DNA from: an uncultured Rhodothermales bacterium
GTDB taxonomy: Bacteria > Bacteroidota > Rhodothermia > Rhodothermales > UBA10348
NCBI GenBank assembly: GCA_964512485.1
Contig: CAZEHJ010000004.1
Coordinates: 3,400 to 67,399 of the forward strand
Length of the DNA: 64,000 nt
Direction of reading: 5' to 3'
Within the stretch, counting starts at the first letter, position 1. Each line of letters opens with the position of its first letter. Both the position numbers and the translations under genes were made by a program. Below the pieces are notes generated by a model that saw only the letters and a program-made list of their open reading frames with translations, had not been told where the DNA came from and made no database searches. This document shows positions 27-16,644 of the stretch, in pieces.

Positions 27-893
27 ATGGCCCAGATTATTGACGGAAAAGCAATTTCGGCTCAGGTTCGAGACGAAGTTAAACAGGCCGTAACCGCACG
101 ATCCGAAGCCGGATTACGCGCTCCATATCTTGCGGTCGTTCTGGTCGGCGAAGATCCGGCATCCGCCTCATACGTTCGGGGAAAAGCCCGTGCTTCGGCG
201 GAAGTGGGCATTGAGAGCGACACGATGTCATATGACGCATCGATTGCCGAGGAGGAACTGCTGAACATCGTCGAGAAGCTGAACAATGACGATGGAGTTG
301 ATGGAATCCTGGTCCAACTTCCCCTTCCAGAACATATCGACGATCGTAAAGTGATCAATGCAATCGCTCCATCTAAGGATGTTGATTGCTTTCATCCTGA
401 AAGTGTAGGAAATCTGGTGATTGGCCTCGATGGGTTTGCTCCGGCTACACCAGCCGGTATTGTTGAGCTCCTACAGCGTTCAGGCATTGAGACGAGCGGA
501 AAACACTGCGTTATCGTCGGTCGATCCAACATCGTGGGTAAGCCCCTGGCCAATCTGATGTTGAAAAAGGGCCTCGATGCAACCGTAACGGTGTGTCATA
601 GCCGAACTAAAGACCTGCCCTCGGTCGCCAGACAGGCCGATATTCTGGTCGCTGCAATCGGTCGTGCAAATTTCGTGACGGCCGATATGGTGAAGGATGG
701 AGCAGTCGTGATTGACGTGGGTATCAATCGTGTCGACGATGCGAGCCGGGAACGAGGCTACCGTTTGGTCGGAGATGTGGACTTCGAAGCGGTTTCTGAA
801 AAGGCCAGCTTCATCACACCGGTTCCGGGCGGAGTTGGCCCGATGACCATCGCTGTTCTTCTCCAGAATACATTGAAAGCTGCCTCCAATTGA
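27..893 (+). CDS. folD: Bifunctional methylenetetrahydrofolate dehydrogenase/cyclohydrolase
   Basis: IIDGKAIS start, GILVQLPLP, KDVDCFHP, GRSNIVGKP, ITPVPGGVGPMTIA motifs. Confidence 0.98.
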   Translation: MAQIIDGKAISAQVRDEVKQAVTARSEAGLRAPYLAVVLVGEDPASASYVRGKARASAEVGIESDTMSYDASIAEEELLNIVEKLNNDDGVDGILVQLPLPEHIDDRKVINAIAPSKDVDCFHPESVGNLVIGLDGFAPATPAGIVELLQRSGIETSGKHCVIVGRSNIVGKPLANLMLKKGLDATVTVCHSRTKDLPSVARQADILVAAIGRANFVTADMVKDGAVVIDVGINRVDDASRERGYRLVGDVDFEAVSEKASFITPVPGGVGPMTIAVLLQNTLKAASN

Positions 894-1119: not shown

Positions 1120-4100
1120 ATGCGGACTCTCAACACACCGCGACAAATACGAAACTCGGGACGTGCGCTTCTTAGCGTTCTCTTGTTGTGCCTCCTTTAT
1201 CCGCTTTTCGGCCCTCAGCTGAATGCCCAGGCCATTGGAGACTTCAGATCCCGCAGGAATGGAAACTGGAGTAAAAGCAACCGCTGGGAAGAATACACGG
1301 GCGCCGGTTGGACCAATACCGGAAACACGCCTAATTCAGCGGACGGCGTGATAACGATCCGAAACGGACATAATATCCGCGGCAACGTCAACGCTAATTA
1401 CGATGAGGTCATCATCGAAAACGGCGGAAGTCTCGATCTGACGCAGGTTTTTAAAGTCGTTGATGGCCCTGGAATTGATCTGCAAGTGCATGGAATCCTT
1501 TCTGTCAATCGAAATGTGCGTGTCAGGGGTACGGCATCAGCGTTTTTTTACTCGACGTCCGACGTTGATTTCGGGGGCGGCAACAAGCTCAGATTCGAAG
1601 ACACTACCACAGCCACGTTTGATGGCGGTACAGTTGCAACCGCAAACGGCACATTCCAGGTCGAAGACAATGCTGTAGTCCAGGTGAACAATGGGACCGT
1701 GATAACCAATACGGGCAGAACACTTGTCAGGAACAGTGGATCTCTTACGCTCACTTCGAGCACAGTTGTCAATCAGGGCTTGTTTGACATAAATGGATCT
1801 GGCGCAGTTACCTTCGCGAATGGATCGATATATGAACACGGGCAGGACGGCAGCTACTTCCCGATTGCTGTCAGAACGACGTTTCAGGCTGGTTCTGAAG
1901 CGAGGGTCACCGGTGTTACGACGACCCTTCCTACGAGACTCAACCACACGTTTGACAAGTTCACGTGGAACTCGACTTCTCAAACAGCCGATCTGGACCT
2001 GGCAGCCGGAATTACAGCGATAAACGACGATTTCACCGTTACATCGACTGGAACGGGCTCTATCACTTGGGATGCGTCGGGGTCTGCCACAACTATCGGC
2101 GGTGACTACATCCAATCCGGCGGGGATTTTCGCTATTCAGACACCGGTTCCACCACGATGACCGTTTCAGGCAATCTGGATGTCAACGGTGGTACATTTG
2201 ACATCGCCAATACCTCCGGTACCCCAATTGTAGCCGTCGCCGGCAATTTTTCCGTTACAGGGGCCATGACCGAATCAGGAACTGGCTCTGGTACGGTCCT
2301 CCTGAACGGAGCAGGCGCACAAACCATTACTGCCAACGGTACTCTTTCGGGAAACATCCATGTGACTACCGCTGGCGCTGGACTCGCTTCGCTTACTACT
2401 GATTTGTTGGTCCCGGGAAATCTTACTGAAACGAGCGGTGGGCTCGATTTGGCCAACTTTGGCCTGGAGGTGGAAGGCAATCTCAGCATCACCTCCGCCC
2501 TCTCAAATACCGGACAAATCCTCTTTTCGAGCGCTACGGCAGCTCAACTGCAGCTTCCTGCCGGCTCCAAGACGCTTCCGGATGTTGTTATTGACAAGCC
2601 AGCCTCGTCTCTCACGATTCTTGCTGACGTTGCGACATCGACGACAGTCATCGTGAGGAATGGCACGCTCGACACCAACGGCTTCGAGTGGCTGCTGCCC
2701 CATGGGACAACTCTTTACAACACAGGTACTGTGACGGGAAATGTCACCATTCAGCGCTCATATTCCCAGAACAGCGATGGTTGGAGAATGCTGGCAGCAC
2801 CCGTAACGGGTCTCATGTATAGCGACCTGAATACCTCATTCTGGACGCAAGGAGCCCCTTGGGCATCAAAAATAGAGGGAACGGCAAACCTGCAGTCATT
2901 CGATTTCGCCTCTCAGGGCTGGACTGAATTAGGCGGAGCTGACGCCGGCTTCGGGACCGGTGGCGGCTACATCTTCTATATGTACGCGCTGGATGACCTG
3001 GGAGCACCAATTTTGCCAGCTACCTGGACTGCAACGGGTACTCCGGGAGCGATGGGAACCATGGGCCTCTCTTTCGCGACCGCGATATCAGATTCGTACA
3101 ACCTTATGGGCAATCAGTCCACCACAAATCTGGATTGGGACCTGACGCATGCTGCCAGTACCAACATGGAATCGTCGTATGCCACCTGGGACCCTTCGGT
3201 CACAACGGGTGGTGGCACGACAGGATACAAGTATTATGATGCAACCAGTGGACTCGGAGCGGCCGGTCGGTACGTAGCCCCCTTCACCTCATTCATGGTT
3301 GCCGCCAATGCTGGTGGAGCTCAGATTGTCCCGACCTCGAGCGAAGCGGCTTCCCGACAAACTGCCGTCACGTACGGTAAAAACAACCGCATTGCACCAC
3401 ATTTCCGCCTTTTGCTTGAAGGTGAGGGACTTGCCGAAAACGAGACCTATCTCTCGTACGGCGGCGAGGCCACAGACGAATCCGGTGAATTTGACGTGCT
3501 GCGCCTGCACCCCCTCTCTCTCGATTTTGTGACCCTTTGGTCTGAATCTGATGGACGCAGGCTGGCATTTGACGGCCGCACCATGGACGAAGGTCGCGAA
3601 ATCTACGACCTCACAGTTGCAGCGACCCGAAACGGACAATATTCGCTCACATTGCTTGGCAAACACAAAATCCCCGATTCCTGGACCGTTACGCTTGTTG
3701 ACCTTCAGACGGGCAACAAGGCTGACCTGAGTAACGGCGAAGAAATGCTGTTCCAGACGCGCTCTGAAGACATCGTGACGGTCAATTCAGGCTTCGAATC
3801 CACACGCGCTCCTCGATTCAGGGTGATCGTGACGGATTCAAATCGAACGGTGGAGGCATCTGAAGACCTTTTCGCACAGACAGATGTGCCCGTTCTGAGC
3901 CAGAATTACCCAAATCCCTTCAATCCATCTACTTCGATCCGTTATTCCATCCCACGTTCATCCGTGGTTTCTCTCGAAGTATTTGATGTCCTCGGTCGTC
4001 GTCTGGCCATTCTTGTGGACCAGACTCAGGATGCCGGCTGGCATGAAGTGAATTTTTTGTCTGGAAATCTTGGAAGTGGCACCTATTTATACCGCTTAGT

Positions 4101-4146
4101 CGTTGATGGCCAATCGTTTAGTAGGCCTATGCTCCTGCTTAAGTAG
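1120..4146 (+). CDS. Large secreted adhesin-like protein with beta-helix-type repeats and T9SS C-terminal sorting domain
   Basis: Signal peptide (..QLNA|QA); N-terminal GDFRS..GNW..W..ITIRNGH motif; G/T/N/S-rich repeats of the type xVxGN(L/F)xVxGG; C-terminal SQNYPNPFNPST..VFDVLGR..GTYLYRL..MLLLK CTD (~3892-4146). Confidence 0.8.
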   Translation: MRTLNTPRQIRNSGRALLSVLLLCLLYPLFGPQLNAQAIGDFRSRRNGNWSKSNRWEEYTGAGWTNTGNTPNSADGVITIRNGHNIRGNVNANYDEVIIENGGSLDLTQVFKVVDGPGIDLQVHGILSVNRNVRVRGTASAFFYSTSDVDFGGGNKLRFEDTTTATFDGGTVATANGTFQVEDNAVVQVNNGTVITNTGRTLVRNSGSLTLTSSTVVNQGLFDINGSGAVTFANGSIYEHGQDGSYFPIAVRTTFQAGSEARVTGVTTTLPTRLNHTFDKFTWNSTSQTADLDLAAGITAINDDFTVTSTGTGSITWDASGSATTIGGDYIQSGGDFRYSDTGSTTMTVSGNLDVNGGTFDIANTSGTPIVAVAGNFSVTGAMTESGTGSGTVLLNGAGAQTITANGTLSGNIHVTTAGAGLASLTTDLLVPGNLTETSGGLDLANFGLEVEGNLSITSALSNTGQILFSSATAAQLQLPAGSKTLPDVVIDKPASSLTILADVATSTTVIVRNGTLDTNGFEWLLPHGTTLYNTGTVTGNVTIQRSYSQNSDGWRMLAAPVTGLMYSDLNTSFWTQGAPWASKIEGTANLQSFDFASQGWTELGGADAGFGTGGGYIFYMYALDDLGAPILPATWTATGTPGAMGTMGLSFATAISDSYNLMGNQSTTNLDWDLTHAASTNMESSYATWDPSVTTGGGTTGYKYYDATSGLGAAGRYVAPFTSFMVAANAGGAQIVPTSSEAASRQTAVTYGKNNRIAPHFRLLLEGEGLAENETYLSYGGEATDESGEFDVLRLHPLSLDFVTLWSESDGRRLAFDGRTMDEGREIYDLTVAATRNGQYSLTLLGKHKIPDSWTVTLVDLQTGNKADLSNGEEMLFQTRSEDIVTVNSGFESTRAPRFRVIVTDSNRTVEASEDLFAQTDVPVLSQNYPNPFNPSTSIRYSIPRSSVVSLEVFDVLGRRLAILVDQTQDAGWHEVNFLSGNLGSGTYLYRLVVDGQSFSRPMLLLK

Positions 4147-4274: not shown

Positions 4275-4781
4275 ATGAAGAAAATGAAATTAACTGTTAT
4301 TGTGACCGGGCTGATCCTGTTTGCAGGATTGGCCACCACCGCAAAAGCGCAGTCTGACAATCATCTGGTAAACGTCGAAGTGCAGGCAATCAACGAGATT
4401 GCAATCGCGGCTGATGTTACACTTCAGATTACGACTGCAACGGCTGGTTCCGATCCAACGGATGCTACTGACAACACTTCGTATGCAATAACGACGAACG
4501 ATGCCGGTGGAACAACCAGAATTACAGCAGCTACGAGCGTCGACCCAGCCACGTTGGGTGATGGTCCTGCTGGTGTAGACATCCAGGTAAACGCAACTGC
4601 TCCTACGGGCGGTTTGGGTGCCGGGAATATTTCTCTCGGAACCGTTGCAGCTAACGTTGTAACCAGTATCGACCCTGTTTCTGAAGGAACACTGACACTC
4701 GCTTACACGCTGAGTGCCACCGCCGAAACTGGACAGCTGGCTTCAACTGCCGTTACAGTTACCTACACGATCGTCAACTAA
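4275..4781 (+). CDS. Secreted pilin-like subunit 1 (putative major subunit)
   Basis: Sec signal peptide (AKA|QS); A/T/V/G-rich beta protein with no Cys; N-terminal alternating LVNVEV strand; C-terminal VTVTYTI strand; paralogous to the next two ORFs. Confidence 0.65.
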   Translation: MKKMKLTVIVTGLILFAGLATTAKAQSDNHLVNVEVQAINEIAIAADVTLQITTATAGSDPTDATDNTSYAITTNDAGGTTRITAATSVDPATLGDGPAGVDIQVNATAPTGGLGAGNISLGTVAANVVTSIDPVSEGTLTLAYTLSATAETGQLASTAVTVTYTIVN

Positions 4782-4797
4782 GCAGTGAAAACTGTTT
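4780..4797 (+). promoter_or_regulatory. Stem-loop directly after the subunit 1 stop codon (GAAA tetraloop)
   Basis: AAGCAGT-GAAA-ACTGTTT, 7-bp stem with one G-U pair. Confidence 0.45.
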
Positions 4798-4832
4798 AGA
4801 ACGCGATCTGTAGATATCCCTTCAAACGATCC

Positions 4833-5369
4833 ATGCGTAGAACAATGCCCATACTGTGGTTATTTCTCGCATGGATCGTTTTGTTTTGGGTTCCCGACTC
4901 AAGGGCCCAAGTCCCTCCTCCTCTTCCTGACGCGCTCATAATGGCGGCATCCAGCCTGACCCTAAGCCAGTCGGTGACGGTTTCCGTTCAGGAAATCAAC
5001 GAACTTTCTATTTCCGGGGATGTGGCAATTACAATTTCCACTGCTTCACCGGGCTCCGGACCTGATCCTGAGAACGACACCTCCGCCAGCTACAATCTGA
5101 CCACCAACGGAGCCAACAAGAAGATTACAGGCTCGATAGATGTGGCCTACACGGCTGGAATCACCCTCTCTCTATTGCTGGCAGCGCCTTCTGGTGGCTC
5201 AGCATCCTCAAAAAACCTCAGCACCACGGCTCAAGACCTCGCCACCGGATTCGGCCTCACAGCTGAATCCAGCCTTGGCATCACCTATACAGCATCCGCG
5301 ACCGTTGACGTAGCTCCGAACGGCCTTGGTGAAACGCGTACGGTAACGCTTACGCTGATGGACAACTGA
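4833..5369 (+). CDS. Secreted pilin-like subunit 2 (Pro-rich N-terminal extension)
   Basis: Signal peptide (SRA|QV); shares VxVxVQxINE..I.xDV..I.TA..GS.P, SY..TTN, AP.GG, Y..SAT and the C-terminal TVT.T motifs with subunit 1. Confidence 0.65.
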   Translation: MRRTMPILWLFLAWIVLFWVPDSRAQVPPPLPDALIMAASSLTLSQSVTVSVQEINELSISGDVAITISTASPGSGPDPENDTSASYNLTTNGANKKITGSIDVAYTAGITLSLLLAAPSGGSASSKNLSTTAQDLATGFGLTAESSLGITYTASATVDVAPNGLGETRTVTLTLMDN

Positions 5370-5370
5370 G

Positions 5371-5880
5371 ATGAGAACATGTAGCCAACATATTCTCAGA
5401 CTTTCCGCAGCAAGCCTGGTCATCCTGTTCAGCCTCCTTTCTGCCCCACAAAGCCGGGCACAGGAGTTTCGCTACAATTCAGGCGGTGGCCCGCTAACTC
5501 TGCTGATCCAGACGGCGACGGCAGGCTCAGAGCCGAATGATGCCACTGACAATGCAACAGAAATCTACTGGGATGCCAACTTCGGCGCCCCATCCAAAAT
5601 TACAGTCTCGACTATCGCACCAGGCCAGTCTTTCCAGCTCTTCCTTTTACTTAGCGTACCAAGCCAGGGTGGTGGTGGACAAGGTGTTGCGCAGCCCGAG
5701 GTCACGTTAGTTGACGGGATGCTCGATGCAGACCTGTTTACAGACATTCCCTCCACCCTGCCAGGACGGCAAGGTTTTGGCACGCTTGAATACCGTGCAG
5801 CCGCTACAGTTGCTGATGGCAACAGTTCGATGCACGGAGATGACGTTCACATAGTCACTTTAACCGTTTTAGCCCAATGA
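5371..5880 (+). CDS. Secreted pilin-like subunit 3 (lacks the N-terminal strand)
   Basis: Signal peptide (SRA|QE); TATAGSEPNDATDN nearly identical to TATAGSDPTDATDN of subunit 1; KIT, LEYRAAAT and C-terminal IVTLTV motifs. Confidence 0.6.
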   Translation: MRTCSQHILRLSAASLVILFSLLSAPQSRAQEFRYNSGGGPLTLLIQTATAGSEPNDATDNATEIYWDANFGAPSKITVSTIAPGQSFQLFLLLSVPSQGGGGQGVAQPEVTLVDGMLDADLFTDIPSTLPGRQGFGTLEYRAAATVADGNSSMHGDDVHIVTLTVLAQ

Positions 5881-6698
5881 GCAGACAAATAGCCCTCATA
5901 CTCACTCTTTTGATGCTGGCTGTTCCTTCCTCTTCGAAGGCACAAATTTCCGTCAGATCTCAGCTTTCACAGGACACCAGCGCCCAACCTGGTGAATCCT
6001 ACGTGGGATCGATACTGATTCGCAACGATACGGATGAAATTCAGCAGGCAAAGATTTATCAGACGGATTATCTGTTCCAGTCTGACGGGTCAAACTATTT
6101 CGGCGATCCAGGAACGATTGAACGTTCAAATGCAAAGTGGATCGACGTTGCATCTTCATCCATGATGGTCCCTCCTCGTGAAGCCATCGAGGTAAGTTAT
6201 CGCGTGAACGTACCAATGGACGTAGATGCCGAACCTCTTCAGGGGTCGTACTGGAGCATCATCATGGTAGAGGGCATTCCCAAGAGCTCTCCAGAGAATA
6301 TTGAGAACGATGTACCAGACGATGCTCTGGGAATAATTCAGGTCACTCGCTACGGTGTACAGGTTGCCACTCACATTGACGGCACCGGCGCTGCAAACCT
6401 GACAATCAGTGAATCAGCTCTGTCCAAAAGCGAAGGCAACATTGCTTCTCTGCAACTGAGCGTGGCAAACGAAGGCGACAAGCTTGTCAGGCCTGAAATC
6501 TGGGTTGAGCTCTACGATGAGGCAGGAAACGCCCTTGGACGCATCGACGGAGTCAATAACCGCATTTATCCAGGAACGAGCGTCAAGCAACAGATTGAAC
6601 TGGGTAAACTCGAAATCGGAAGATACCGGGCCCTTGTCATCATGGATGCCGGAGACGATGAGGTGTTCGCGGCCGAATACAATCTGAACATCGACTAA
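5877..6698 (+). CDS. Periplasmic two-Ig-domain chaperone-like protein (PapD-like / DUF916-like)
   Basis: Signal peptide (SKA|QI); W.DV....VPP..A.EV.Y.V.VP, GSYWSIIMVE, acidic loop then LGIIQVTRYGVQV; second Ig domain with NEG..LVRP..W.ELYD..G and G.YRALVI.D; ATGA overlap with subunit 3. Confidence 0.6.
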   Translation: MSRQIALILTLLMLAVPSSSKAQISVRSQLSQDTSAQPGESYVGSILIRNDTDEIQQAKIYQTDYLFQSDGSNYFGDPGTIERSNAKWIDVASSSMMVPPREAIEVSYRVNVPMDVDAEPLQGSYWSIIMVEGIPKSSPENIENDVPDDALGIIQVTRYGVQVATHIDGTGAANLTISESALSKSEGNIASLQLSVANEGDKLVRPEIWVELYDEAGNALGRIDGVNNRIYPGTSVKQQIELGKLEIGRYRALVIMDAGDDEVFAAEYNLNID

Positions 6699-6735: not shown

Positions 6736-9700
6736 ATGAGACGATCTAGTTACATATCGGTTGTTCTGTTAATCACGGGATTGTTCGCCGTCGCACCAAG
6801 CGCAACGGCGGCTTTTTCTTTTGAAGAGGTTTCTCGGCAGGACGAAGTGTCCATCGATATAATCGGCGGAGACAGCCTTGCTGTGGACCCGGGCGATGTT
6901 GTAACACTGGTCTACAAGATCCACTCAGACCAATCGGGTGTTCGCAATCTGACTCCATCTTTTGACATTCCACAGGGATGGAGCGTCGTTTTTGGAACAG
7001 ATACGCTGAAATTGAGCCCTGAAGAACCCACGACCCGATTGGTGACCTACAAGGTTCCGGAGTCGTCACTGGCCGGTTCCTACAAGATCAACCTTGCGCT
7101 CCTTGACGCAGAGGGAAATGCGATAGGAAATAAAAGTGCCGGTATTGGAGTCAATGCAATTTTCGCGATCGACCTGGATGCAGACCCCATGGAAACCTAT
7201 GCGGCAGCCGGAAAGCTGGTTCAGGTCACTTTCACGCTTTCAAACGACGGCAACGCACCCATCTCTGTGAACCTCGATGCTGTCGACCGCAAGTTTGCTG
7301 ACGTTCGCCTACCATATTCCAGCATTGATCTGGCTCCGAAAGAGTCAGTCACCTTTACTGCCGAAATCAACACAGATGCCAATCTCGATCACACCCAGCG
7401 GGCAAACCTGCGATTTGAAGCCCAGATCGCCGAAAAAAGTGAAATATTCGATTTTGAAACTGTAGCGTTTGATATCGTACCCGTCTATTCCCGAATCCGT
7501 CCAAAAGCGGCCAGAGTGCCTCTGAGCCTTGCTCTTGAAACAGTGGGAGACGAATCCGGAATAATGCCCCAGGCCACAATCGCTGCACAGACTCACCTTT
7601 TGGGTGGCAACGTATCTGTGATTGCTACCCTTGCTGAGATGCCACGTCAGAAGTTCTTCGGAGCGGATCAGCGACTCGAAATTCAGTACGAGAACGAAGA
7701 TGTGACCGTAAAACTCGGCGATCACTCTCAGTCCATCTCACCGATGACGCTCACAGGAGAGCAAGGACTCGGAATTGGAGCAGAAGTTAAAACTACAGAC
7801 TGGACGTTTAAAGGCACTGTCCAACGTTCACGATTCGTATTCCCAGTACAGGAACGATTCGCTGCCTCAGCCGCCTACCAGACATCACCATCGTCCTTTG
7901 TAAGCGCTAACTTGCTGCACCGCAACGAATTTTACGATGGCACCTTACTTACTTTGAGAAGTTCTTCGCAGCCGCTTGGTTCTTCTTCCCGTATGGATGT
8001 CGAGTGCGGAATCGACTCTTCTGAAGCGTTGCGAGATCCCTCCTGCTCGGTTCAGTTCTCAGATAGTGGCTCCCGATTGTCGTACCGAATACGAGCTCAG
8101 AAGGCGTCGGAGTCATTTCCCGGCACACTGGCAGGACTACGCCAGATTTCCGAATACGCATCCTTCAGGCTGAACGACAGATTCCGCCTCGACAATACGT
8201 ATAGACGTTTCGATCGATCGTTGGGCGGCGGATTTGCGCGTTCGAGTTCTCTCGCGAAGGCTGGAGTCACATATACCGATCGCATTCACGGAGGTACATT
8301 GTACCTGACGGCGCATGGTATCCGCACTAAATCGACCTATTCCAATATTCGATCAGACGCGGATCGATCTGAACTTATTGCTCGAACAACCCTGGGATAT
8401 CACATGCGTTCCATAGGGTTAACGGTATCTATGGAGGAAGGTAGAACGACCTCCACCAGCGAGCAGAAGGCAGGGAGTCTGCGCCGTTTCAAGACCAATT
8501 TCAGAGTTTCTCCTCTCCCAAGATGGACGCTGAACGCGTCAGTTGAAGCATCGACGGGCAGCCTTTCCGCTCTTTCTGTACGTCAGTCGCAGAAGCAGTA
8601 TGGTCTCGGCTCCACGATCAGCCTGCCTCGTGAGTGGACGGCCAGTGTGATAGGATTTCACAGTCAGGTCAAAACCCTGATTGATCAGCAGTATTCATCT
8701 CTCAGAAGCGGCCTTTCCAAGTCATTTCGGTCCGGTCGTACTCTTTCCGCCCAGGTTCAGCTGAACCGGAGTACGGGTCGTAGTACCGTTCAAACGGCAG
8801 ATTACCGCCTTTCATTTACTACTCCACTTTCCATGCCGTTTGGTGGAAAAGGATTTGACGATGAAATGCTGCGTGGTCGCGTGACCGATGAAGAAACGGG
8901 ACTCCCATTGTCAGGCGTTCTCGTATTTCTGGGCGACAAACTTGCTATCTCTGATGACAAGGGACGATTTGTCTTCCCGAGACCTGAACTGGCTGTAGAA
9001 TTCCTTCGCGTAGATCAGAACAGTATCGGCTATGATCGCACACCCGCCGCCGCCATGCCGATGGAAATCGATCCATCCTCGTTTCTGAACTCAGAATTGA
9101 ACCTGATCATATCCAAGGCTTCCAGTATTACCGGAGACATTTTCATCTACCACAACAGTGCAAGCAGCGACCTGCTCGTTGGGAATCCATCAGACAAACT
9201 GGTTCAGGAAGGCGGAATCAATGGCGCGATAGTTCAGATTTCCAATGAGAAGCACAGACAGCGTACGAGAACATCACGCAGCGGATCTTTCAGGTTTGAC
9301 CAGCTTCCATCCGGCGAATACACTATTGAGATTATTCGCATTCAACACGAAGAACACCAACAGATTAGCACGACTTCGTTTAAGGTTTTTGTAAAGCAGG
9401 GTGAAAGTGAATACGTGCTATTCAGGGTGGAGCCGAAACGCAAGTCGATAAGGATGATTCAGTCTTCGACCCTGTCAGTAGGTGATCCTAAAGACAACAT
9501 TCGAAAAATACCTGTCCTCAAAGGAGATCACGTTTCTTCGGATTCCGTGAAAACCAAAAAGAATGATTGGAAGGCTCGCACTCCAAATCCTGAAACGCCT
9601 GTTCGAAATGAATCCAAACCTGCAAAAGGGAAATGGTCAGATCAGATGCTGGACTCTGCCAAAGAAGCCCCAAGCGATTCTCTGGACGCATTCTCTGCGG

Positions 9701-10551
9701 TATCAATACCGTATTACGTTGAAATAGAGGGAAATACAGCCAACGAGAAGAGATCCGGGCTCGTCATGCTTCTCTTTGTCCTGTGTGTGCTATTCGTCCT
9801 CCTGGACGTGGATCTTCTCGTTCGCCATGCGATGGATTCATTTGGCGGTCCCATCAAGTCGATGAATTCACCAGTCTGGCTCTGGACGATCAGGCAGGCA
9901 GCTGTTTATGCTCTTGGAATTGGATTTTTTACTCTCTGGGCTGGTGTGCTCGAAGGATTCGCTGTATCTCTGGCTCTTGGAGGCATTACAGTAGCCGTCG
10001 AATCGTGGAATACGTACCGAGCAATTGGGAATATCATGAACCTGACCTTCCTGAGACGGGCCGGATCGGGGTCCTGGATTCCATATAGAAACTCCACTGC
10101 TCGCATCGTCTCGATTTCCCTTGAGTCCGTCGAACTGGAGTTACTGAACGGAAATACCGTCAAAGTGGCCACCCATGCAATTCGACGCCTGTCACCGCGG
10201 AAATGGACGAGTAACTCAGTGGTAACAAATGAGTTTGAAATCCAGATATCCAGGATGTCCAATCTGAAGCTGGTCCGAAGCAGCATTGAGGAGACTCTGG
10301 CCTTGTACGCTCCCGAAGGAACATCCGGAAACGTCCATATCGAGTTTATAGATGTAAATGAAAGTGACACAATTGCTTCGATACGGACCGTAATCGACAA
10401 AGCTCGTCCTGATCATGGCATCATCAGTGCTGTGGTTGAGAAAGAGCTTGCCGCATACGGTGTTGAGCTGAGATCCGTCAGGCTTCATGCGCCAGATTCG
10501 CCCTTCGGCCCGCTCAAACTGGTTCAGCTCCCCGGTACCAAAGCGGCCTGA
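6736..10551 (+). CDS. Usher-like outer-membrane protein (2 Ig domains + beta-barrel + 2 carboxypeptidase-regulatory-like domains) fused to a C-terminal MscS-like module
   Basis: Signal peptide; aa ~38-250 two NEW3/COG1470-type Ig domains; aa ~261-700 amphipathic beta-strands; aa ~712-900 GRVTDEETGLPLSGV..SDDKGRF and GAIVQI..TSRSGSFRFDQLPSGEY; aa ~1005-1255 three hydrophobic helices plus MscS-like cytoplasmic domains. Confidence 0.6.
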   Translation: MRRSSYISVVLLITGLFAVAPSATAAFSFEEVSRQDEVSIDIIGGDSLAVDPGDVVTLVYKIHSDQSGVRNLTPSFDIPQGWSVVFGTDTLKLSPEEPTTRLVTYKVPESSLAGSYKINLALLDAEGNAIGNKSAGIGVNAIFAIDLDADPMETYAAAGKLVQVTFTLSNDGNAPISVNLDAVDRKFADVRLPYSSIDLAPKESVTFTAEINTDANLDHTQRANLRFEAQIAEKSEIFDFETVAFDIVPVYSRIRPKAARVPLSLALETVGDESGIMPQATIAAQTHLLGGNVSVIATLAEMPRQKFFGADQRLEIQYENEDVTVKLGDHSQSISPMTLTGEQGLGIGAEVKTTDWTFKGTVQRSRFVFPVQERFAASAAYQTSPSSFVSANLLHRNEFYDGTLLTLRSSSQPLGSSSRMDVECGIDSSEALRDPSCSVQFSDSGSRLSYRIRAQKASESFPGTLAGLRQISEYASFRLNDRFRLDNTYRRFDRSLGGGFARSSSLAKAGVTYTDRIHGGTLYLTAHGIRTKSTYSNIRSDADRSELIARTTLGYHMRSIGLTVSMEEGRTTSTSEQKAGSLRRFKTNFRVSPLPRWTLNASVEASTGSLSALSVRQSQKQYGLGSTISLPREWTASVIGFHSQVKTLIDQQYSSLRSGLSKSFRSGRTLSAQVQLNRSTGRSTVQTADYRLSFTTPLSMPFGGKGFDDEMLRGRVTDEETGLPLSGVLVFLGDKLAISDDKGRFVFPRPELAVEFLRVDQNSIGYDRTPAAAMPMEIDPSSFLNSELNLIISKASSITGDIFIYHNSASSDLLVGNPSDKLVQEGGINGAIVQISNEKHRQRTRTSRSGSFRFDQLPSGEYTIEIIRIQHEEHQQISTTSFKVFVKQGESEYVLFRVEPKRKSIRMIQSSTLSVGDPKDNIRKIPVLKGDHVSSDSVKTKKNDWKARTPNPETPVRNESKPAKGKWSDQMLDSAKEAPSDSLDAFSAVSIPYYVEIEGNTANEKRSGLVMLLFVLCVLFVLLDVDLLVRHAMDSFGGPIKSMNSPVWLWTIRQAAVYALGIGFFTLWAGVLEGFAVSLALGGITVAVESWNTYRAIGNIMNLTFLRRAGSGSWIPYRNSTARIVSISLESVELELLNGNTVKVATHAIRRLSPRKWTSNSVVTNEFEIQISRMSNLKLVRSSIEETLALYAPEGTSGNVHIEFIDVNESDTIASIRTVIDKARPDHGIISAVVEKELAAYGVELRSVRLHAPDSPFGPLKLVQLPGTKAA

Positions 10552-10632
10552 ACAACCCCTTACAGCGCGGTTCAACCTGTCTGTATTGCCGGAAGGCGTT
10601 TGGGCCCGAAATCCGCACCGATCTGGATTCGG

Positions 10633-11097
10633 TCAATCTCCGAAGTTGAGAACTGATCCCTCGTATTCTTCCCCGTTAATCGAATAGCAATACTCGATCT
10701 GAGCGCTCTTGGCCAGCATTTCCGCCACCGAGCAGTATTTGCCCAGACCCAATTCGATCGCGCGCCTGGTCTTTTTCTCATCCAGAGTCCCTTCGAATCG
10801 ATAGGACAAGATGATGCGCTCGTAGGTTGAGGGCGAAACACCATCCGGTTTGAATCCATCAACTTGCATATTGAAGCCGGTGAGCTCCTGACGTCCTTTC
10901 TTTAGTATAGAAACGATGTCACCCCCACTGCAGGCACCGATCGCAATCACGATCAGCTGCATGGGGCCTACTCCGTTGCCGTCGCCATCTTCGTACGCCG
11001 TTGCGTCATCGATGTCAACCGAGTGGCCGTCAGCATTGAAGCCGCGAAAATGGAAATCATTGTCCTGTTTTTCAAGGCGAACAGATACTTTGCCCAT
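10633..11097 (-). CDS. OsmC/Ohr family (YhfA-like) protein
   Basis: GVGPMQL..AIGACSGGDIVSILKKGRQ and KYCSVA two-Cys motifs; probable start MGKVSV at 11097 (ORF track extends to 11151). Confidence 0.9.
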   Translation of the reverse strand: MGKVSVRLEKQDNDFHFRGFNADGHSVDIDDATAYEDGDGNGVGPMQLIVIAIGACSGGDIVSILKKGRQELTGFNMQVDGFKPDGVSPSTYERIILSYRFEGTLDEKKTRRAIELGLGKYCSVAEMLAKSAQIEYCYSINGEEYEGSVLNFGD

Positions 11098-11107
11098 CAG
11101 ATAGTCC

Positions 11108-11908
11108 TCAGTCGGTGGCGGATTCTTCTTCGTTCCAAGTCCAGGTACCAAGATCTTCCAAGGTGTGATAAGCCGTCAGGTCGTGTTGAATGGGTGTAAT
11201 TGAGACCCACCCATTTTCGACAGCCCATAAATCGGTGTTGTCGCCTGTGTCCAGGTTTACAAATGTACCTGATAGCCAGTAGTATGGTCTGTTAAACGGG
11301 TCGAGTCGTTCAGCAAACGACTCCTCCCACATGGATCTGGCCTGTCTCGTAACCATGCAGCCTTGTAATTCGGACAGCGGAAGATCTGGGACGTTCACGT
11401 TGAGCAGAATTCCGGGCATCAACCCTCCCTGCAGTACACGAACTGCTATATCTTTTGCCACTCGTGCGGATGCTTCGAAGTCGCCCCCTCCCCATTTGCA
11501 GTAGGAAAAGGCGATTGCGGGTATTCCCAGAATGGCCGCTTCTGTGGCCGCGCTGACCGTACCGGAATAGATCACGTTTACAGCCGTGTTGGGCCCATGA
11601 TTAATCCCAGAAACGACCAGATCAGGCTTTCTGGGGACGAGCTTGTCGAGTGCAAGCTTCACACAGTCGGCTGGAGTCCCCGAGACCGCATAGGCTTGAA
11701 TCTGACCCGATGGTCCCCGGAATGGCCAGGGCCGGGCTCTGACAGGATCACGCATCGTTATCGCATGGCCTACCGCACTCATTTCCTGAAGCGGGGCAAC
11801 GACTATCAGATCTGCAATTGAATCCAGAGCTGCAGCGAGCGACAGAATACCGGCAGCTTCAATTCCATCATCATTGCTGATCAGAATCAGCGGGCGATCA
11901 TTTTTCAT
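11108..11908 (-). CDS. surE: 5'/3'-nucleotidase SurE
   Basis: [39 protein letters not shown] motifs. Confidence 0.97.
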
Positions 11909-11976
11909 CTACGCATCATTGGTCTACACTTTGTGGCCTGGGCGAGTTGACTTACGCGATACTATCAACTCGAAGT

Positions 11977-12810
11977 TCAGTAGCTCTCATCATTCGACGG
12001 AAACTGACCGGTGCGAACATCGCTTATGTATTGCTGAACCCGCTCGGTAATAAGATCTCCCAGATGAGCATAACGACGAACAAAGCGTGGATTAAAATCA
12101 GTCGTTAATCCCAGGGCATCATGGGTTACGAGAACCTGGCCATCACAGGCTGGGCCTGCTCCTATTCCAATTGTGGGTACGGAAAGAGACTCCGAAACCT
12201 GCTTGCCCAATGGAGCCGGTATTTTCTCCAGCACGATTCCAAACACTCCCGCCTTTTCCAGCAGTACAGCATCCTCTTTCAACTCCTCTGCTTCGATCTC
12301 TTCCTGCGCTCGTACCTGGTAGGACCCGAAGCGGTAGATCGATTGAGGAGTCAAACCCAGGTGGCCCATAACAGGAATACCTGCCTCGAGAATGCGCTCG
12401 ACGATCGGGATCACGGTCTTCCCTCCTTCAACCTTCACAGCATGTGCACCGGACTCTTTCATCACCCGAACGGCCGAAGACAGAGCCTCTTTGGAATTGC
12501 CCTGATAGCTACCGAAAGGCAAGTCTACGACGACAAGTGCCCTTCCTACCCCCCGCACCACGCACTGGGCATGGTAGATCATCTGATCCAGCGTTATCGG
12601 AAGAGTAGTCTCATGACCCGCCATGACGTTCGATGCCGAATCCCCGACAAGGATCACGTCCAGGCCAGCAGCATCCAGTATACGGGCTGACGTGTAGTCG
12701 TAGGCCGTGAGCATGGCAATACGAACGCCGGAGCGTTTCATTTCCTGAAGGGTCCGGGTCGTAACCCTGACTGCCTTATCCGGAGATGGTCTGGTGGACT
12801 CTGTACTCAT
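11977..12810 (-). CDS. panB: 3-methyl-2-oxobutanoate hydroxymethyltransferase
   Basis: [40 protein letters not shown] motifs. Confidence 0.98.
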
Positions 12811-12852
12811 ATATATGGGGGCAGATATTTATGCGCGGGTCGCAATATAAAG

Positions 12853-12883
12853 AAAGGCGGGCGCCCTGTGGGCGCCCGCCTTT
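12853..12883 (-). terminator. Intrinsic terminator downstream of the bamA-skp-skp operon
   Basis: Perfect 14-bp stem AAAGGCGGGCGCCC/GGGCGCCCGCCTTT, followed on the minus strand by TTTCTTT; also T-rich on the plus strand. Confidence 0.85.
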
Positions 12884-12904
12884 TAAAGCGCTTCGAATTC
12901 AAAC

Positions 12905-13450
12905 TCAGTTCGAGGCAGTCGTGTCTTCTTCGATTTCAATACCGAGTGCCTGGGCAATATCGACATTGATATTGATAACCTTCTCAGGATTGACGTAAAG
13001 CAACGCAGGAGATCGAATGACGATGTCGAGTCCTTTCTCAGCTGAGATCGAATCGATTGCGTCCTGCACTTTCTGAAGCAGCGGTGCCATCAATTCGTCC
13101 TGACGTGCAGCCAGTTCCTGATCCTTGGCAGCCGCTGAATTCTGTATTTCTGCCTGGAGCGCGGCAAGTTCACCTTCTCGTTCTGCCTGACGTTCCGCCG
13201 ACAGGAGCGGCTGCTGACGCTGGTACCGATCAACGCGTTCCTGAAAGTCCTCTGCAAGCGCCTGAAGAGCATCCTGGCTCGTGCGGTACTCTACTGCAAT
13301 CTGCTGCTGGACGCCTTGATACTCAGGCATATACGTGATAATAATTTCAGGATCGGCATAACCAACCTTGAGAGCCTGTGCAGAGGCATCCGTCTGCGTA
13401 AAGCCTATCATCATGAAGGCTACTACGATGCTGAAAATGAATTTTTTCAT
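12905..13450 (-). CDS. skp: OmpH/Skp periplasmic chaperone (copy 2)
   Basis: Signal peptide, KVGYAD, coiled coil, L..KVQDAI..I..EKGLDIV; follows bamA. Confidence 0.9.
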   Translation of the reverse strand: MKKFIFSIVVAFMMIGFTQTDASAQALKVGYADPEIIITYMPEYQGVQQQIAVEYRTSQDALQALAEDFQERVDRYQRQQPLLSAERQAEREGELAALQAEIQNSAAAKDQELAARQDELMAPLLQKVQDAIDSISAEKGLDIVIRSPALLYVNPEKVININVDIAQALGIEIEEDTTASN

Positions 13451-13547
13451 GTCTGTTATTTAGTCACTTCGGCTGCGTGGCAGCGTTCGTGCTGGATTAT
13501 GCGGTTGAACAAACGTTCAACCTGTTTTTGGAGTTTAGATGTGTCTC

Positions 13548-14096
13548 TTAACCGCGGGTACTCACAACGTCTATGCCAAGTTCTCTGAGAACGGTATCAG
13601 AAAGATCGAATTGATCGCGCTTGAACATGAACAGGAACTCCCCGTTGATATCAAATACGTAATCATATCCCTCAGACGTGGCCACTTCGTCGATTGCTTG
13701 AAGAATTTTTTCCTGAACTGGCCTCATGAGCTGTTCCTGATTCAGAAATATATCCCCTTCAGGGCCAAAATACTTGACCCGCAGTCTTTCCAGGTCTTCT
13801 TCGGCTCTCACGATTTCCTGTCTGCGCCGCTGCCGTTCTTCATTGGTATAAAGCAGCTCTCTGGCCTGGTATTCACGAAATTGCTCGTCCAATTCTCCTC
13901 GGAGACCATCCAACTCCTGTTGCCAGGTTTGGGCCATTCGGTCAAGCTGTTGTTGAATAGTCGCGTATTCCGGAAGAGCATTCAGGATATATTCGGAATC
14001 GATATATCCAATCTTCTGCTGTGCACTGGCAGACTGAAAAGGAATTACAAGCGCAAAAACCAGAGCAGCTAGAAGGGTAGACAGATTCTTAGTCAT
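13548..14096 (-). CDS. skp: OmpH/Skp periplasmic chaperone (copy 1)
   Basis: QKIGYIDSEYIL..LPEY, P.QEKI..AIDEVA..EGYDYVFD, DLSD.VL.ELG. Confidence 0.93.
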   Translation of the reverse strand: MTKNLSTLLAALVFALVIPFQSASAQQKIGYIDSEYILNALPEYATIQQQLDRMAQTWQQELDGLRGELDEQFREYQARELLYTNEERQRRRQEIVRAEEDLERLRVKYFGPEGDIFLNQEQLMRPVQEKILQAIDEVATSEGYDYVFDINGEFLFMFKRDQFDLSDTVLRELGIDVVSTRG

Positions 14097-14166
14097 CGTA
14101 CTGGCGTTGATTATTGACGGCGGAAGTTGGTAACAAGCTGTACAGTATTCAGGACTCCGTTACTTG

Positions 14167-16644
14167 TTACTGTCCGAAACTCTGGCCCAGGCTGAACTGG
14201 AAGGACCACTTTTTCGAGCCGTCGTGTTTGCTGTCAATCGCTTCAAATTCGTCAAAATTATAACCGTATGCCATTTCTACCATACCGAGAATCGGCAAGA
14301 AAAACTTCATTCCGAAGCCTGCTGACCGAAACAGATCCGTCGGATTGTACGATTTGAAGTCATGCCAAGCGTTTCCAGCGTCAATAAATGCATATGGGAC
14401 GGCCTGAAGCTGCTCCGATTGAACGGCCGACCATTTCAATTCAGCAGAGTATTTATTCAATATCTGACCACCGAAGGGCTCGTTGTCAGATGCTCTCGGG
14501 CCAATTGCTCCTAAAGAGTACCCTCTCATATAGACGATGTCCTTTCCGAAGAAATTGAAAAAACCCTGCGTGTCGAAAGGAGAGCCACCAACAATGAAGC
14601 GTTCGAAGGCCACATCATCCCCATTCAATGATCCGATATACCCATAATCAGCGGCAAGGCTGAGAGACAGCTTCGGTGCGATAGGTGTATTCCAGGAGTT
14701 CTTCATTCTCCACTTGTGATACTGGATCAGATTTCCGAGCGGAGGCGCAATTTCAAGAGACAGGGAGAAAGTCGATCCACTCTGAGGGAAAAACGGATGA
14801 TCCGCCGTGTTTCTGGAGAGGGACTGTTGGATTGTGATTTCCTGGCTCACACCAAATGGTAGTGTAGAAATCCATTCCTCATTGTTGTAATACTGATAAC
14901 CCAGAGATGTCGAAGTCCTGAACCATGGATCAGGCCATTTCAAACGCTGCTCGAAAAATACACGCTGATTGAACGTCTGCAATTTTCCGCCTGAACTTCC
15001 CGATCTGATAATGTTCTGTGCGATGCGCGAGTAGGAAGTGGAGAACCCGACGGGCCTCGGTTTCCCTTTGAACCAGGGCTCGGTGAAAGAAAGTGAATAC
15101 TGCTGATACAGGCGACCGCTGGTCTGGACACCCACAGAGAATCGCTGTCCATCTCCGGATGGGAGCGGCTTCCACTCCTTCGCTTTGAAGAAATTCTGCA
15201 TCGAGAAGTTGTTGAACGTAAATCGCAGCATCAGAATCAGACCGAACTGACCCCAGGTACCAGATAATTCCAACTGATCGGTGCCAGCTTCCGCAAGATT
15301 GTATTGTAGATCAACTGTTTTGCTCTCTTCCCTGACGTCGATGCCAGGCCCACCGGCAAGAGATTCCTGCGTGAAATAGTTCAACTGCATCAGGCGCCTG
15401 ATTGAATCCTGAATCGCATTTCGACTGAACGTGTTTCCCGGCACCGTGGTCAATTCACGTCGCACGACATGATCCTTTGTCTTGGTGTTGCCAGCGATAT
15501 TTATTGTCCCGTAGTTGTAGACATCTCCCTCGAACAGGTCAAAAAGCAGGTCGAGGCTATCTCCCACAACAGTAATCCGAGGCTCGACACTGAAGCGCAT
15601 ATAGCCGGAATTGAAATACAGACTTGATACGTCTCTGTTCTTTCCGACACCATACAGATTTTCGGTCAACATCTTGGAGTTGTATGCATCTCCTTCGAGA
15701 ATTCCGAGGCGCTCATTAAGCATTTCTTCCGGGAAAAGAGTGTTTCCCTCCCACTTGATGCTTCTGACGTGATACTGTGGGCCTTCGACAACTTCCAGGT
15801 CAACTACCAGGAATGGCTTCTTGCTGTCAGCATTCTCAATGAATACTGAGTCCCGAACGACGCGCGCATCGAAATATCCATTTTCATTGTACTTCGCAAC
15901 GATGCGATCAAGATCTTTCTCGTACTCGCTGCGATCCATCTTGCCGCTACGCCAGAATCTGAGGCCACCTTTCGGTTTGGTTTCCATGGCACCGATTACC
16001 TTGGACTCGGACAAACCTTCGCTTCCGGAAATATTGATCTCGCGAACTTTTACTTTCGGACCACGATCTATCAGGAAGTCGACCGACTCCGTGTTATCAG
16101 GGTGGGACGATTTTGTCACTTCTACTTCGGCCAGAGGAAAGCCCTTCTCAGCGTAAAAGTCTGTGATGATTTGGACGCTTCTCGCGATGCTGTTCTCGTG
16201 GACCGGTCCACGCGTTACGAGAGGGACCTCTTTGCGCAGGTCTTTTGCGTGTCCCTTCTTTATTCCCGAGAACTGATACTCCCTCAATTTGGGGACTTCG
16301 CGCACCCGGATCACCAGATATACCCCCTGACCGACCTTTCTCTCCTGAACGATCTGGACATCTTCATAGGTACGCAGACGATAAATAGCCCGAATGGCAT
16401 CTCCGAGAGCAGGATCGCCCGGAATCGTCATTTTCTGTCCTATGAGAAGACGAGACGTCTGCTGCACAAAACTGTTGGAATAATCGTCACTCGTGCCTTC
16501 AACGGAGATTCCGAGAATTTCAACAATCTCAGGGTTTCCAAGGGGACCGCGCGCATCTGAGAGCGCCTGACCGGTCAATTGCGCGTGCGATGCTCCCGTT
16601 ACTGTTGCCAGTAGAAGTAGGATAAAAAGGGCTTTGAGCCTCAT
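14167..16644 (-). CDS. bamA: Outer membrane protein assembly factor BamA
   Basis: POTRA repeats (GNTKTKDHVVRRE), MRGY motif, FIDAGNAW, FGYG-like strand, terminal FQFSLGQSF. Confidence 0.96.
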   Translation of the reverse strand: MRLKALFILLLLATVTGASHAQLTGQALSDARGPLGNPEIVEILGISVEGTSDDYSNSFVQQTSRLLIGQKMTIPGDPALGDAIRAIYRLRTYEDVQIVQERKVGQGVYLVIRVREVPKLREYQFSGIKKGHAKDLRKEVPLVTRGPVHENSIARSVQIITDFYAEKGFPLAEVEVTKSSHPDNTESVDFLIDRGPKVKVREINISGSEGLSESKVIGAMETKPKGGLRFWRSGKMDRSEYEKDLDRIVAKYNENGYFDARVVRDSVFIENADSKKPFLVVDLEVVEGPQYHVRSIKWEGNTLFPEEMLNERLGILEGDAYNSKMLTENLYGVGKNRDVSSLYFNSGYMRFSVEPRITVVGDSLDLLFDLFEGDVYNYGTINIAGNTKTKDHVVRRELTTVPGNTFSRNAIQDSIRRLMQLNYFTQESLAGGPGIDVREESKTVDLQYNLAEAGTDQLELSGTWGQFGLILMLRFTFNNFSMQNFFKAKEWKPLPSGDGQRFSVGVQTSGRLYQQYSLSFTEPWFKGKPRPVGFSTSYSRIAQNIIRSGSSGGKLQTFNQRVFFEQRLKWPDPWFRTSTSLGYQYYNNEEWISTLPFGVSQEITIQQSLSRNTADHPFFPQSGSTFSLSLEIAPPLGNLIQYHKWRMKNSWNTPIAPKLSLSLAADYGYIGSLNGDDVAFERFIVGGSPFDTQGFFNFFGKDIVYMRGYSLGAIGPRASDNEPFGGQILNKYSAELKWSAVQSEQLQAVPYAFIDAGNAWHDFKSYNPTDLFRSAGFGMKFFLPILGMVEMAYGYNFDEFEAIDSKHDGSKKWSFQFSLGQSFGQ

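Follow-up and report, generated by a model that had tools for sequence, protein, structure and literature searches.

The subject of this work is a group of neighbouring genes in a 64,000-nucleotide stretch of DNA (referred to here as the window) from an uncultured Rhodothermales bacterium (GenBank assembly GCA_964512485.1, contig CAZEHJ010000004.1, positions 3,400 to 67,399 of the forward strand), and in particular the gene of a large secreted protein, designated here the barrel protein, which follows the genes of three small secreted paralogues and of a secreted partner protein of 273 residues. The genes succeed each other in this order with short gaps or overlaps, the partner gene ending 37 nucleotides upstream of the barrel gene. 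The latter is an open reading frame (ORF) on the plus strand that extends from an ATG at position 6736 to the first stop codon at position 10551, and its product comprises 1271 residues. An earlier note on this DNA, made from the sequence alone, had described an atypical usher-like protein at positions 6736-9435; the start of this span was correct, but position 9435 is only where the second C-terminal domain ends, so that the account covered the first 900 of the 1271 residues and missed a disordered linker of about 100 residues together with an MscS-like module.

Homologues of the barrel protein bear out the full length of the reading frame. An initial search retrieved 12 proteins of 1134-1343 residues with 41-60% identity, to which a profile search added another four, and 15 of these 16 homologues align over their full length, with the C-terminal module read in a single frame as here. 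The long ORF can therefore be considered real, and a fusion or assembly artefact as its source is ruled out by the same 15 proteins. The exception (P0004, from locus L018, positions 7001-10799 of a long-read metagenome contig) is an orthologue split into ORFs of 1134 and 117 residues within the MscS-like module; its cluster-mate P0172 has 1265 residues, and the split probably stems from an indel introduced in assembly and not from a truncation in nature.

An AlphaFold2 (AF2) model of residues 1-960, built with 16 sequences (predicted local distance difference test, pLDDT, 73.8; predicted TM-score, pTM, 0.41), revealed two beta-sandwiches, an unbroken run of hairpin-connected strands, two more sandwiches and disorder from residue 906 onwards (Table 1). 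No Pfam family was found between residues 250 and 710 or after residue 900, and a scan with NCBIfam yielded nothing beyond the Pfam matches. It can be stated with high confidence that the protein forms a 26-strand outer-membrane barrel that carries periplasmic domains at its two ends, which agrees with the earlier description of a large outer-membrane barrel placed between periplasmic beta-sandwich domains.

Table 1. Features of the barrel protein and of the neighbouring upstream genes, with positions in the window.
Feature	Position	Strand	Basis
Signal peptide, residues 1-25 (MRRSSYISVVLLITGLFAVAPSATA, then A)	6736..6810	+	Read from sequence; predicted cleavage site
Ig-like domain 1, NPCBM_assoc type, predicted periplasmic, residues 38-139	6847..7152	+	Pfam, AF2
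Ig-like domain 2, residues 145-248	7168..7479	+	Weak Pfam matches, AF2
Conserved proline-flanked linker, residues 249-261, PVYSRIRPKAARV	7480..7518	+	Alignment
26-strand outer-membrane beta-barrel without plug insert, residues 262-699	7519..8832	+	AF2, Foldseek, conservation
C-terminal beta-sandwich 1, CarboxypepD_reg-like, predicted periplasmic, residues 711-807	8866..9156	+	Pfam, AF2
C-terminal beta-sandwich 2, CarboxypepD_reg/transthyretin-like, residues 822-900	9199..9435	+	Pfam, AF2
Disordered, length-variable linker, residues 901-1000	9436..9735	+	pLDDT, alignment gaps
MscS-like inner-membrane module, residues ~1001-1271 and stop codon	9736..10551	+	Profile match to MscS
Secreted two-domain protein of 273 residues, chaperone candidate	5877..6698	+	Conserved linkage
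Three small secreted paralogues of 168, 178 and 169 residues, candidate cargo or fibre subunits	4275..5880	+	Signal peptides, no Pfam family
Protein of 1008 residues with type IX secretion system (T9SS) C-terminal (type A) sorting domain, accessory	1120..4146	+	TIGR04183, 32.8 bits

A 26-strand barrel without a plug

The central part of the protein was modelled separately (AF2 of residues 249-712 alone, with an alignment of 71 diverse sequences), resulting in a pLDDT of 93.3 and a pTM of 0.85. The model contains 26 consecutive strands, from residues 262-272 through 685-699, and no helix; all strands are connected as hairpins, the longest connection measures 12 residues, and neither a plug nor any other inserted domain is present. 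The strands are two-faced, as the earlier note had read from residues ~261-700, with a mean hydropathy of +0.87 on the hydrophobic and -1.40 on the polar face, and every one of the best 50 Foldseek matches listed for the model is an outer-membrane barrel protein. Connections opposite the termini average 5.8 residues as compared to 3.2 on the near side, which corresponds to the usual pattern of outer-membrane proteins (OMPs) and would place both termini in the periplasm. The barrel had also been suspected to be shorter than that of a classical usher, which is true in residues, because the plug insert is absent and the loops are short, but not in strands, of which there are 26 versus 24.

Sequence conservation, given here and below for an alignment of 128 family members unless indicated otherwise, extends across the barrel. 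The segment of residues 245-712 has exactly 468 residues and zero indels in all 12 first-round homologues, suggesting strong constraint, and G328-D329, G346, R366 and E423 are 96-100% conserved, E423 reaching 100%. This glutamate, invariant in 128 of 128 members, faces the lumen, and behind it all members of the close clade have a cysteine pair, C424 and C437, which brackets the loop between strands 11 and 12 (window positions 8002-8046, residues 423-437) and probably forms a disulfide on the outer side. The strongest signature of the family is a strand 5-loop-strand 6 motif, GDxxxxLSPLTxxGxxGxG, at residues 328-346. When the barrel profile was compared with PDB sequences no match was obtained even at E<=10, and by sequence (Pfam, PDB sequences and hhalign against LptD) the region did not match any of the known non-usher OMP families.

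Domains flanking the barrel

At its N-terminus the protein displays the features of a signal peptide, namely a basic n-region, a hydrophobic core and A-T-A ahead of the predicted cleavage site, and AF2 models residues 3-24 as a lone helix. The following region comprises the two Ig-like repeats that had been noticed at residues ~38-250. The first of these matches NPCBM_assoc (PF10633) at residues 51-121 with 25.1 bits (cut-off 24.4) and is modelled as a beta-sandwich with a pLDDT of 75-88, in which P79 and W82 are conserved at 98% and 100%, respectively. The second shows weak matches to DUF7507 and FixG_C at residues 153-237, is modelled as a sandwich with a pLDDT of 77-91, and has G159, N170 and N173 conserved at 97-100%. 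A PapD-like identity of this tandem Ig region was looked for and found no support. Between the Ig pair and the barrel lies a linker with low pLDDT in both AF2 models, flanked by P249 and P262, each of which is 93% conserved, while P256, K257, A258 and A259 are invariant within the close clade.

Behind the barrel, the two transthyretin/CarboxypepD_reg-like repeats that had been assigned to residues ~712-900 were likewise recovered, PF13620 scoring 47.3 bits in all over two stretches between residues ~713 and 876. The first sandwich is matched by PF13620 (first stretch) and PF13715, is modelled with strands of pLDDT 68-85 and has G714, G743 and P775 conserved at 95% or more; the second contains the best PF13620 stretch (residues 827-876), is modelled with a pLDDT of 83-88 and has R843, G850 and G860 conserved at 92-99%.

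This arrangement is a property of the family at large. A search of 1.84 billion representatives with a profile of the barrel segment retrieved at least 242 cluster representatives at E<=1e-3 (101 at E<=1e-10), which are mostly proteins of 900-1100 residues with the barrel at about residues 250-710 and with median flanks of 244 residues on the N-terminal and ~300 residues on the C-terminal side. Nine relatives that were scanned possess the same pair of domain types, an NPCBM_assoc-type Ig domain and CarboxypepD_reg, and all four flanking domains are conserved, with conserved positions in every one of them. The members looked up are all unnamed or "hypothetical", derive from metagenome-assembled genomes (MAGs) or metagenomes, and are labelled as Rhodothermales, "Bacteroidetes bacterium" or Planctomycetota.

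The C-terminal tail and its MscS-like module

The second C-terminal domain is followed by a linker that is gap-rich and variable in the family alignment, save for K903, I905, R906, M907, I908 and S914, and that falls below a pLDDT of 50 at residues 906-960. It opens, directly behind the domain, with the motif RKxIRMIxSSxLS (residues 901-914, window positions 9436-9477), in which K903, R906, I908 and S914 are invariant in the 16 homologues, P900 and R/K903 being ~80% conserved in the larger alignment. This segment, disordered in the AF2 model, could serve as a latch or pair as a strand with a partner.

The remainder of the protein consists of three hydrophobic helices, followed by beta and alpha/beta domains of cytoplasmic type, and the family profile of this part aligns with residues 36-268 of the E. 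coli MscS chain at E 6e-6 to 2e-5. The similarity to MscS (PDB 2OAU, 6RLD and 7ONJ) covers the transmembrane helices as well as both cytoplasmic domains. The module differs in being very divergent and in being fused behind an exported outer-membrane protein of ~1000 residues, and its channel activity is putative; PF00924 stays under the Pfam gathering threshold and appeared, below threshold, in one homologue only.

Of 172 family proteins, 21 contain the module, and all of these belong to the closest clade, whereas the extreme C-terminus of the nine scanned relatives carries LysM in four cases and SPOR in two, domains that bind peptidoglycan. The MscS-like module represents a clade-specific replacement of the cell-wall anchor. 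The fairly close relatives P0022 (1077 residues) and P0023 (952 residues), with barrel E-values of 1e-106 and 1e-94, lack the module, which places the fusion boundary in a small section of the family tree, where its age could be determined.

As regards topology, the C-terminal end of family members would be periplasmic, because relatives end in LysM or SPOR, and the N-terminal Ig pair would lie on the same side, because the number of strands is even. The fusion is also topologically coherent, since the N-terminus of MscS is periplasmic: the signal peptide would export ~1000 residues, after which the three helices would anchor the remainder in the inner membrane. A precedent from the same superphylum for a single polypeptide with parts in both membranes is provided by the Dma proteins of Bacteroides, whose function is a different one, reported as anti-sigma signalling (PMC10927553).

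A conserved three-part cassette

Within a conserved cassette of three parts that carries no annotation, the barrel protein supplies the outer-membrane component. The gene of a ~280-residue protein is located directly upstream of the barrel gene in seven of seven independent loci, often abutting or overlapping its start, and in each locus the order is the same: two to four small secreted proteins without Pfam family, a protein of 260-301 residues, also without Pfam family, and the barrel protein. The window shares this order with its close relatives (L001, L002 and L018) and also with five distant loci (L006, L007, L014, L015 and L016), one Planctomycetota-labelled MAG being included among the cassette loci, and in these distant loci the barrels are just 17-26% identical. 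The ~280-residue partners are far better conserved than the barrels, with 35-63% identity and 44 invariant columns across eight loci. The small proteins can be aligned by type between loci and show a relationship that crosses phyla, with an hhalign E-value of 1.5e-5 against a protein of the Planctomycetota-labelled locus, and all cassette partners have type I signal peptides and are free of cysteine. Neither Pfam nor NCBIfam has a model for the barrel, the 273-residue partner or the small proteins, and literature searches on chaperone-usher, usher-like and 26-stranded themes returned no description of them.

Several further observations concern the partners. Small proteins of types 1 and 2 display an N-terminal strand of alternating hydrophobicity (VNVEVQAINEIAIA and VTVSVQEINELSIS) which type 3 lacks (window 4275-5880; L007 2096-3192), and a motif QVP(P)xLPxxGA after the signal peptide is common to type 2 of the window and types 2 and 3 of L007. 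In the family of the 273-residue partner, weak matches to WxLIP_PGBD/DUF916 were found in two of five members (E 0.06) and CARDB matches in two. The partner also contains a WSxxMVExxP motif, an acidic loop and an alternating strand, LGIIQVTRYGVQV, which follow each other in the order of the F1-loop-G1 region in PapD-like chaperones, the hhalign probability being just 6%. Its domain 1 matches Ig domain 1 of the barrel protein weakly (hhalign probability 59%, E 9e-5, 87 columns), which hints that the two may share a CARDB/NPCBM_assoc-type domain of common origin.

The 1008-residue T9SS protein is found upstream in L001, L002 and L018 and is absent in the distant loci L006, L014 and L016; it is regarded as accessory, not core, because its linkage is confined to the close Rhodothermales-like clade. 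The minus strand downstream (10572-16644) carries surE, panB, two skp/OmpH genes and bamA. Their order is shared by L001, L002 and L018, and the cassette adjoins core outer-membrane biogenesis genes in this lineage. A folD gene is located just upstream of the cassette in the window (27-893) and in relatives (L009 876-1742); folD adjoins the sfm fimbrial operon of E. coli K-12 as well, a parallel that is very likely due to chance.

Resemblance to ushers and its limits

Ushers are composed of a periplasmic N-terminal domain, a 24-stranded barrel with a plug and two C-terminal beta-sandwich domains, and they bind chaperone-subunit complexes through these sandwich domains. The barrel protein resembles FimD and PapC (PF00577, PF13954 and PF13953; PDB 3RFZ, 9FY9 and 2VQI) in its N-terminal periplasmic sandwich region, its large barrel and its two C-terminal sandwiches, as well as in the location of its gene directly after those of a two-domain secreted protein and small secreted subunit-like proteins. 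The individual parts are nevertheless different: the N-terminus is an NPCBM_assoc-type Ig pair that is a positional analogue of PapC_N only, the two C-terminal sandwiches are rightly placed but belong to CarboxypepD_reg (PF13620) and not to PapC_C, the C-terminal tail with LysM, SPOR or an MscS-like module is absent in ushers, and the cassette partner, unlike that of chaperone-usher operons, has no PapD homology.

These similarities could mean that the protein descends from the FimD/PapC family and has diverged to an extreme degree, with a remodelled barrel and swapped periplasmic domains. Such an origin would fit the gene order (subunits, chaperone-like protein, pore), which resembles that of the fim and pap operons, and the finding that ushers are the top Foldseek matches for both models. 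Against it, the usher profile hidden Markov models (HMMs) PF00577, PF13953 and PF13954 failed to recognise the protein, as the earlier note had anticipated, giving no match at E<=1 here and none at E<=0.01 in the nine distant relatives, and NCBIfam did not report any usher match either. An hhalign comparison with six ushers of E. coli K-12, a profile of gamma-fimbrial ushers only, gave probabilities of 6.3%, 0.7% and 0.05%. Fim/Usher barrels were either 24- or 16-stranded in a large survey, as compared to 26 strands here, the plug, which in ushers is inserted between strands 6 and 7, and PapC_N (PF13954) are both missing, the domain families at both ends are others, and the partner is not PapD-like. 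The protein is not classified as an usher because these four defining features (HMM match, 24 strands, plug and PapC_N) all fail; descent from ushers is thereby largely refuted and is considered highly unlikely.

The structural comparisons indicate where the resemblance resides. For the whole exported part, ushers, including FimD and PapC, are the best Foldseek match (E 3e-11 to 1e-7), followed by LptD (2.5e-7) and OccK porins (1e-6), whereas for the barrel alone the E-values fall in one band (FimD 9e-8, OccK 1.3e-7, MtrB 2e-7). With the flanking domains included, the usher E-value is ~2,700-fold better than for the barrel alone and the LptD value only ~14-fold, while those of OccK and MtrB become worse. 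The likeness to ushers therefore lies in the collinear order of a sandwich region, a barrel and two sandwiches and not in the barrel itself, as the gain comes with the flanks. An independent origin, that is analogy, fits better than extreme divergence. The earlier suggestion of a functional usher analogue too divergent for recognition by sequence thus stands in part: the layout, the cassette and the silence of the HMMs agree with it, but the descent from ushers that it implied is not supported in view of the 26 strands, the lack of a plug and the hhalign probabilities of 0.05-6%. Neither of the two findings named in the earlier note as refuting it was made, the central region being a membrane barrel and showing no sequence match to a known non-usher OMP family.

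Other barrels and what they suggest

Barrels with 26 strands are known from other envelope systems. LptD of the LptDE complex (PDB 4Q35, 5IV9 and 8H1R) shares with the barrel protein its 26 strands, the lack of a built-in plug and a periplasmic N-terminal beta domain, and its lumen is filled by a separate protein. It differs by a low structural score (TM-score, TMq, 0.27-0.35), by an OstA/LptA-like beta-jellyroll in place of Ig domains, by a lipoprotein partner that has no counterpart in the cassette, and by lacking the two C-terminal domains and the tail; a relationship by sequence was rejected (hhalign 1.3% for E. coli LptD, which was run as a control; no Pfam LptD/OstA match). MtrB/PioB of the MtrCAB complex (PDB 6R2Q chain B), also 26-stranded, gave the highest TM-score found for the barrel (TMq 0.48), followed by open FimD (0.41-0.45) and the PapC and FimD pores (0.32). 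The MtrB barrel sheathes a partner protein and has no flanking periplasmic domains; in addition, the cassette contains neither cytochrome genes nor CxxCH proteins, and no MtrB_PioB Pfam match was obtained. TonB-dependent receptors combine a plug with a 22-strand barrel. An assignment to these receptors or to SusC-like proteins was discarded, since the protein has 26 strands without a plug and no Plug (PF07715) or TonB_dep_Rec match, and since CarboxypepD_reg is located behind the barrel here and N-terminally in SusC-like proteins.

The parallels with LptD and MtrB raise the possibility of a stable envelope complex, in which the barrel would permanently house or cap a partner, as in LptD-LptE and MtrB-MtrA, and would act as a tether, a sensor or a device for one-off surface display, with no fibre being formed. 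This would be consistent with the strand number, identical to that of both proteins, with the best barrel TM-score being that of MtrB, and with a barrel that has neither a plug nor long loops, which implies that another protein fills the lumen. Tails that bind peptidoglycan or the inner membrane are tether-like, and a ~280-residue partner conserved much above the barrel is what obligate complex partners often show. Nevertheless, any sequence relation to LptD is lacking, the loci encode no cytochromes and, given type I signal peptides and cysteine-free proteins, no lipoprotein partner, whereas the two to four paralogous small proteins per locus, with their differing N-termini, fit polymer subunits better than a lone plug, and the N-terminal sandwich region with the two C-terminal sandwiches matches ushers best. 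Such a complex is regarded as unlikely, but it is the main rival explanation.

A simpler explanation would be a large porin, that is a general or substrate-specific diffusion channel with periplasmic anchors that functions independently of the small genes. OccK-type porins, AlgE and chitoporin are indeed among the structural matches of the barrel, and the LysM and SPOR anchors recall OmpA-like OMPs tethered to the cell wall. However, an open 26-strand pore with loops of no more than 12 residues would be far too leaky, four conserved periplasmic domains would be needless for a porin, and the strict linkage to homologous partner genes in all seven loci argues for a joint function, making a porin a very improbable solution.

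A proposed role in export and assembly

On balance we incline, somewhat beyond even confidence, to the view that the barrel protein is an usher-like export or assembly pore for the small proteins of the cassette, loaded by the ~280-residue protein and non-homologous to ushers, a view that is based on the architecture and on the strict gene linkage. According to this proposal, the barrel protein would leave the cytoplasm through Sec and settle with its 26-strand barrel in the outer membrane, with the Ig region (residues 38-248) and the transthyretin-like domains (residues 711-900) both hanging in the periplasm. These domains would dock complexes of the ~280-residue protein with small proteins and pass the latter on through the wide pore, which has no plug, so that they reach the surface, probably in polymeric form; that the small proteins form polymers is less certain than their passage. 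The flexible C-terminal tail would fix the machine to the layer beneath, which would be peptidoglycan in relatives with LysM or SPOR and, in the clade of the window, the inner membrane, reached through the MscS-like module.

Several findings weigh against an usher-like pore of this kind. None of the cassette components shows sequence homology to chaperone-usher proteins, and the 273-residue partner as a PapD-like chaperone is not supported (hhalign 4.5-6%). With 26 strands and no plug, gating is left unexplained; no TM-score of the barrel alone reaches 0.5, ushers score no higher than MtrB, and the packing between domains is uncertain in the model of residues 1-960, as indicated by its pTM of 0.41.

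Concluding remarks

To our knowledge, the pili so far known to be assembled at the outer membrane without ATP belong either to the chaperone-usher pathway or to one of a few unrelated systems, curli and type V pili among them. The cassette described here appears to represent a second, sequence-unrelated solution that follows the same logic of a periplasmic carrier, a multi-domain pore and small subunits, and the barrel gene is probably the mark of a hitherto undescribed system by which uncultured bacteria build surface fibres or export proteins. We regard it as an outer-membrane platform of usher type assembled from unrelated parts, and the chance that it forms an independent class of machinery is considerable. 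The wider proposition is more tentative and, as a whole, rather doubtful, namely that a machinery class for fibre or protein export, independent of chaperone-usher origin, appears to be widespread in uncultured bacteria of the FCB group and in Planctomycetota-labelled bacteria, and that in one clade a trans-envelope MscS-like fusion could link surface-structure assembly with the tension or osmotic state of the envelope, in either direction.

If the cassette does represent such a second solution, the usher principle would have evolved convergently, a function would be at hand for several unannotated protein families, of which that of the barrel alone comprises at least 242 representative clusters, and the closing of a plug-less 26-strand barrel would constitute a new gating problem. 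The clade-specific MscS-like fusion would then be a rare single polypeptide spanning both membranes, and it would offer a concrete handle on the link between envelope mechanics and the assembly of surface structures.

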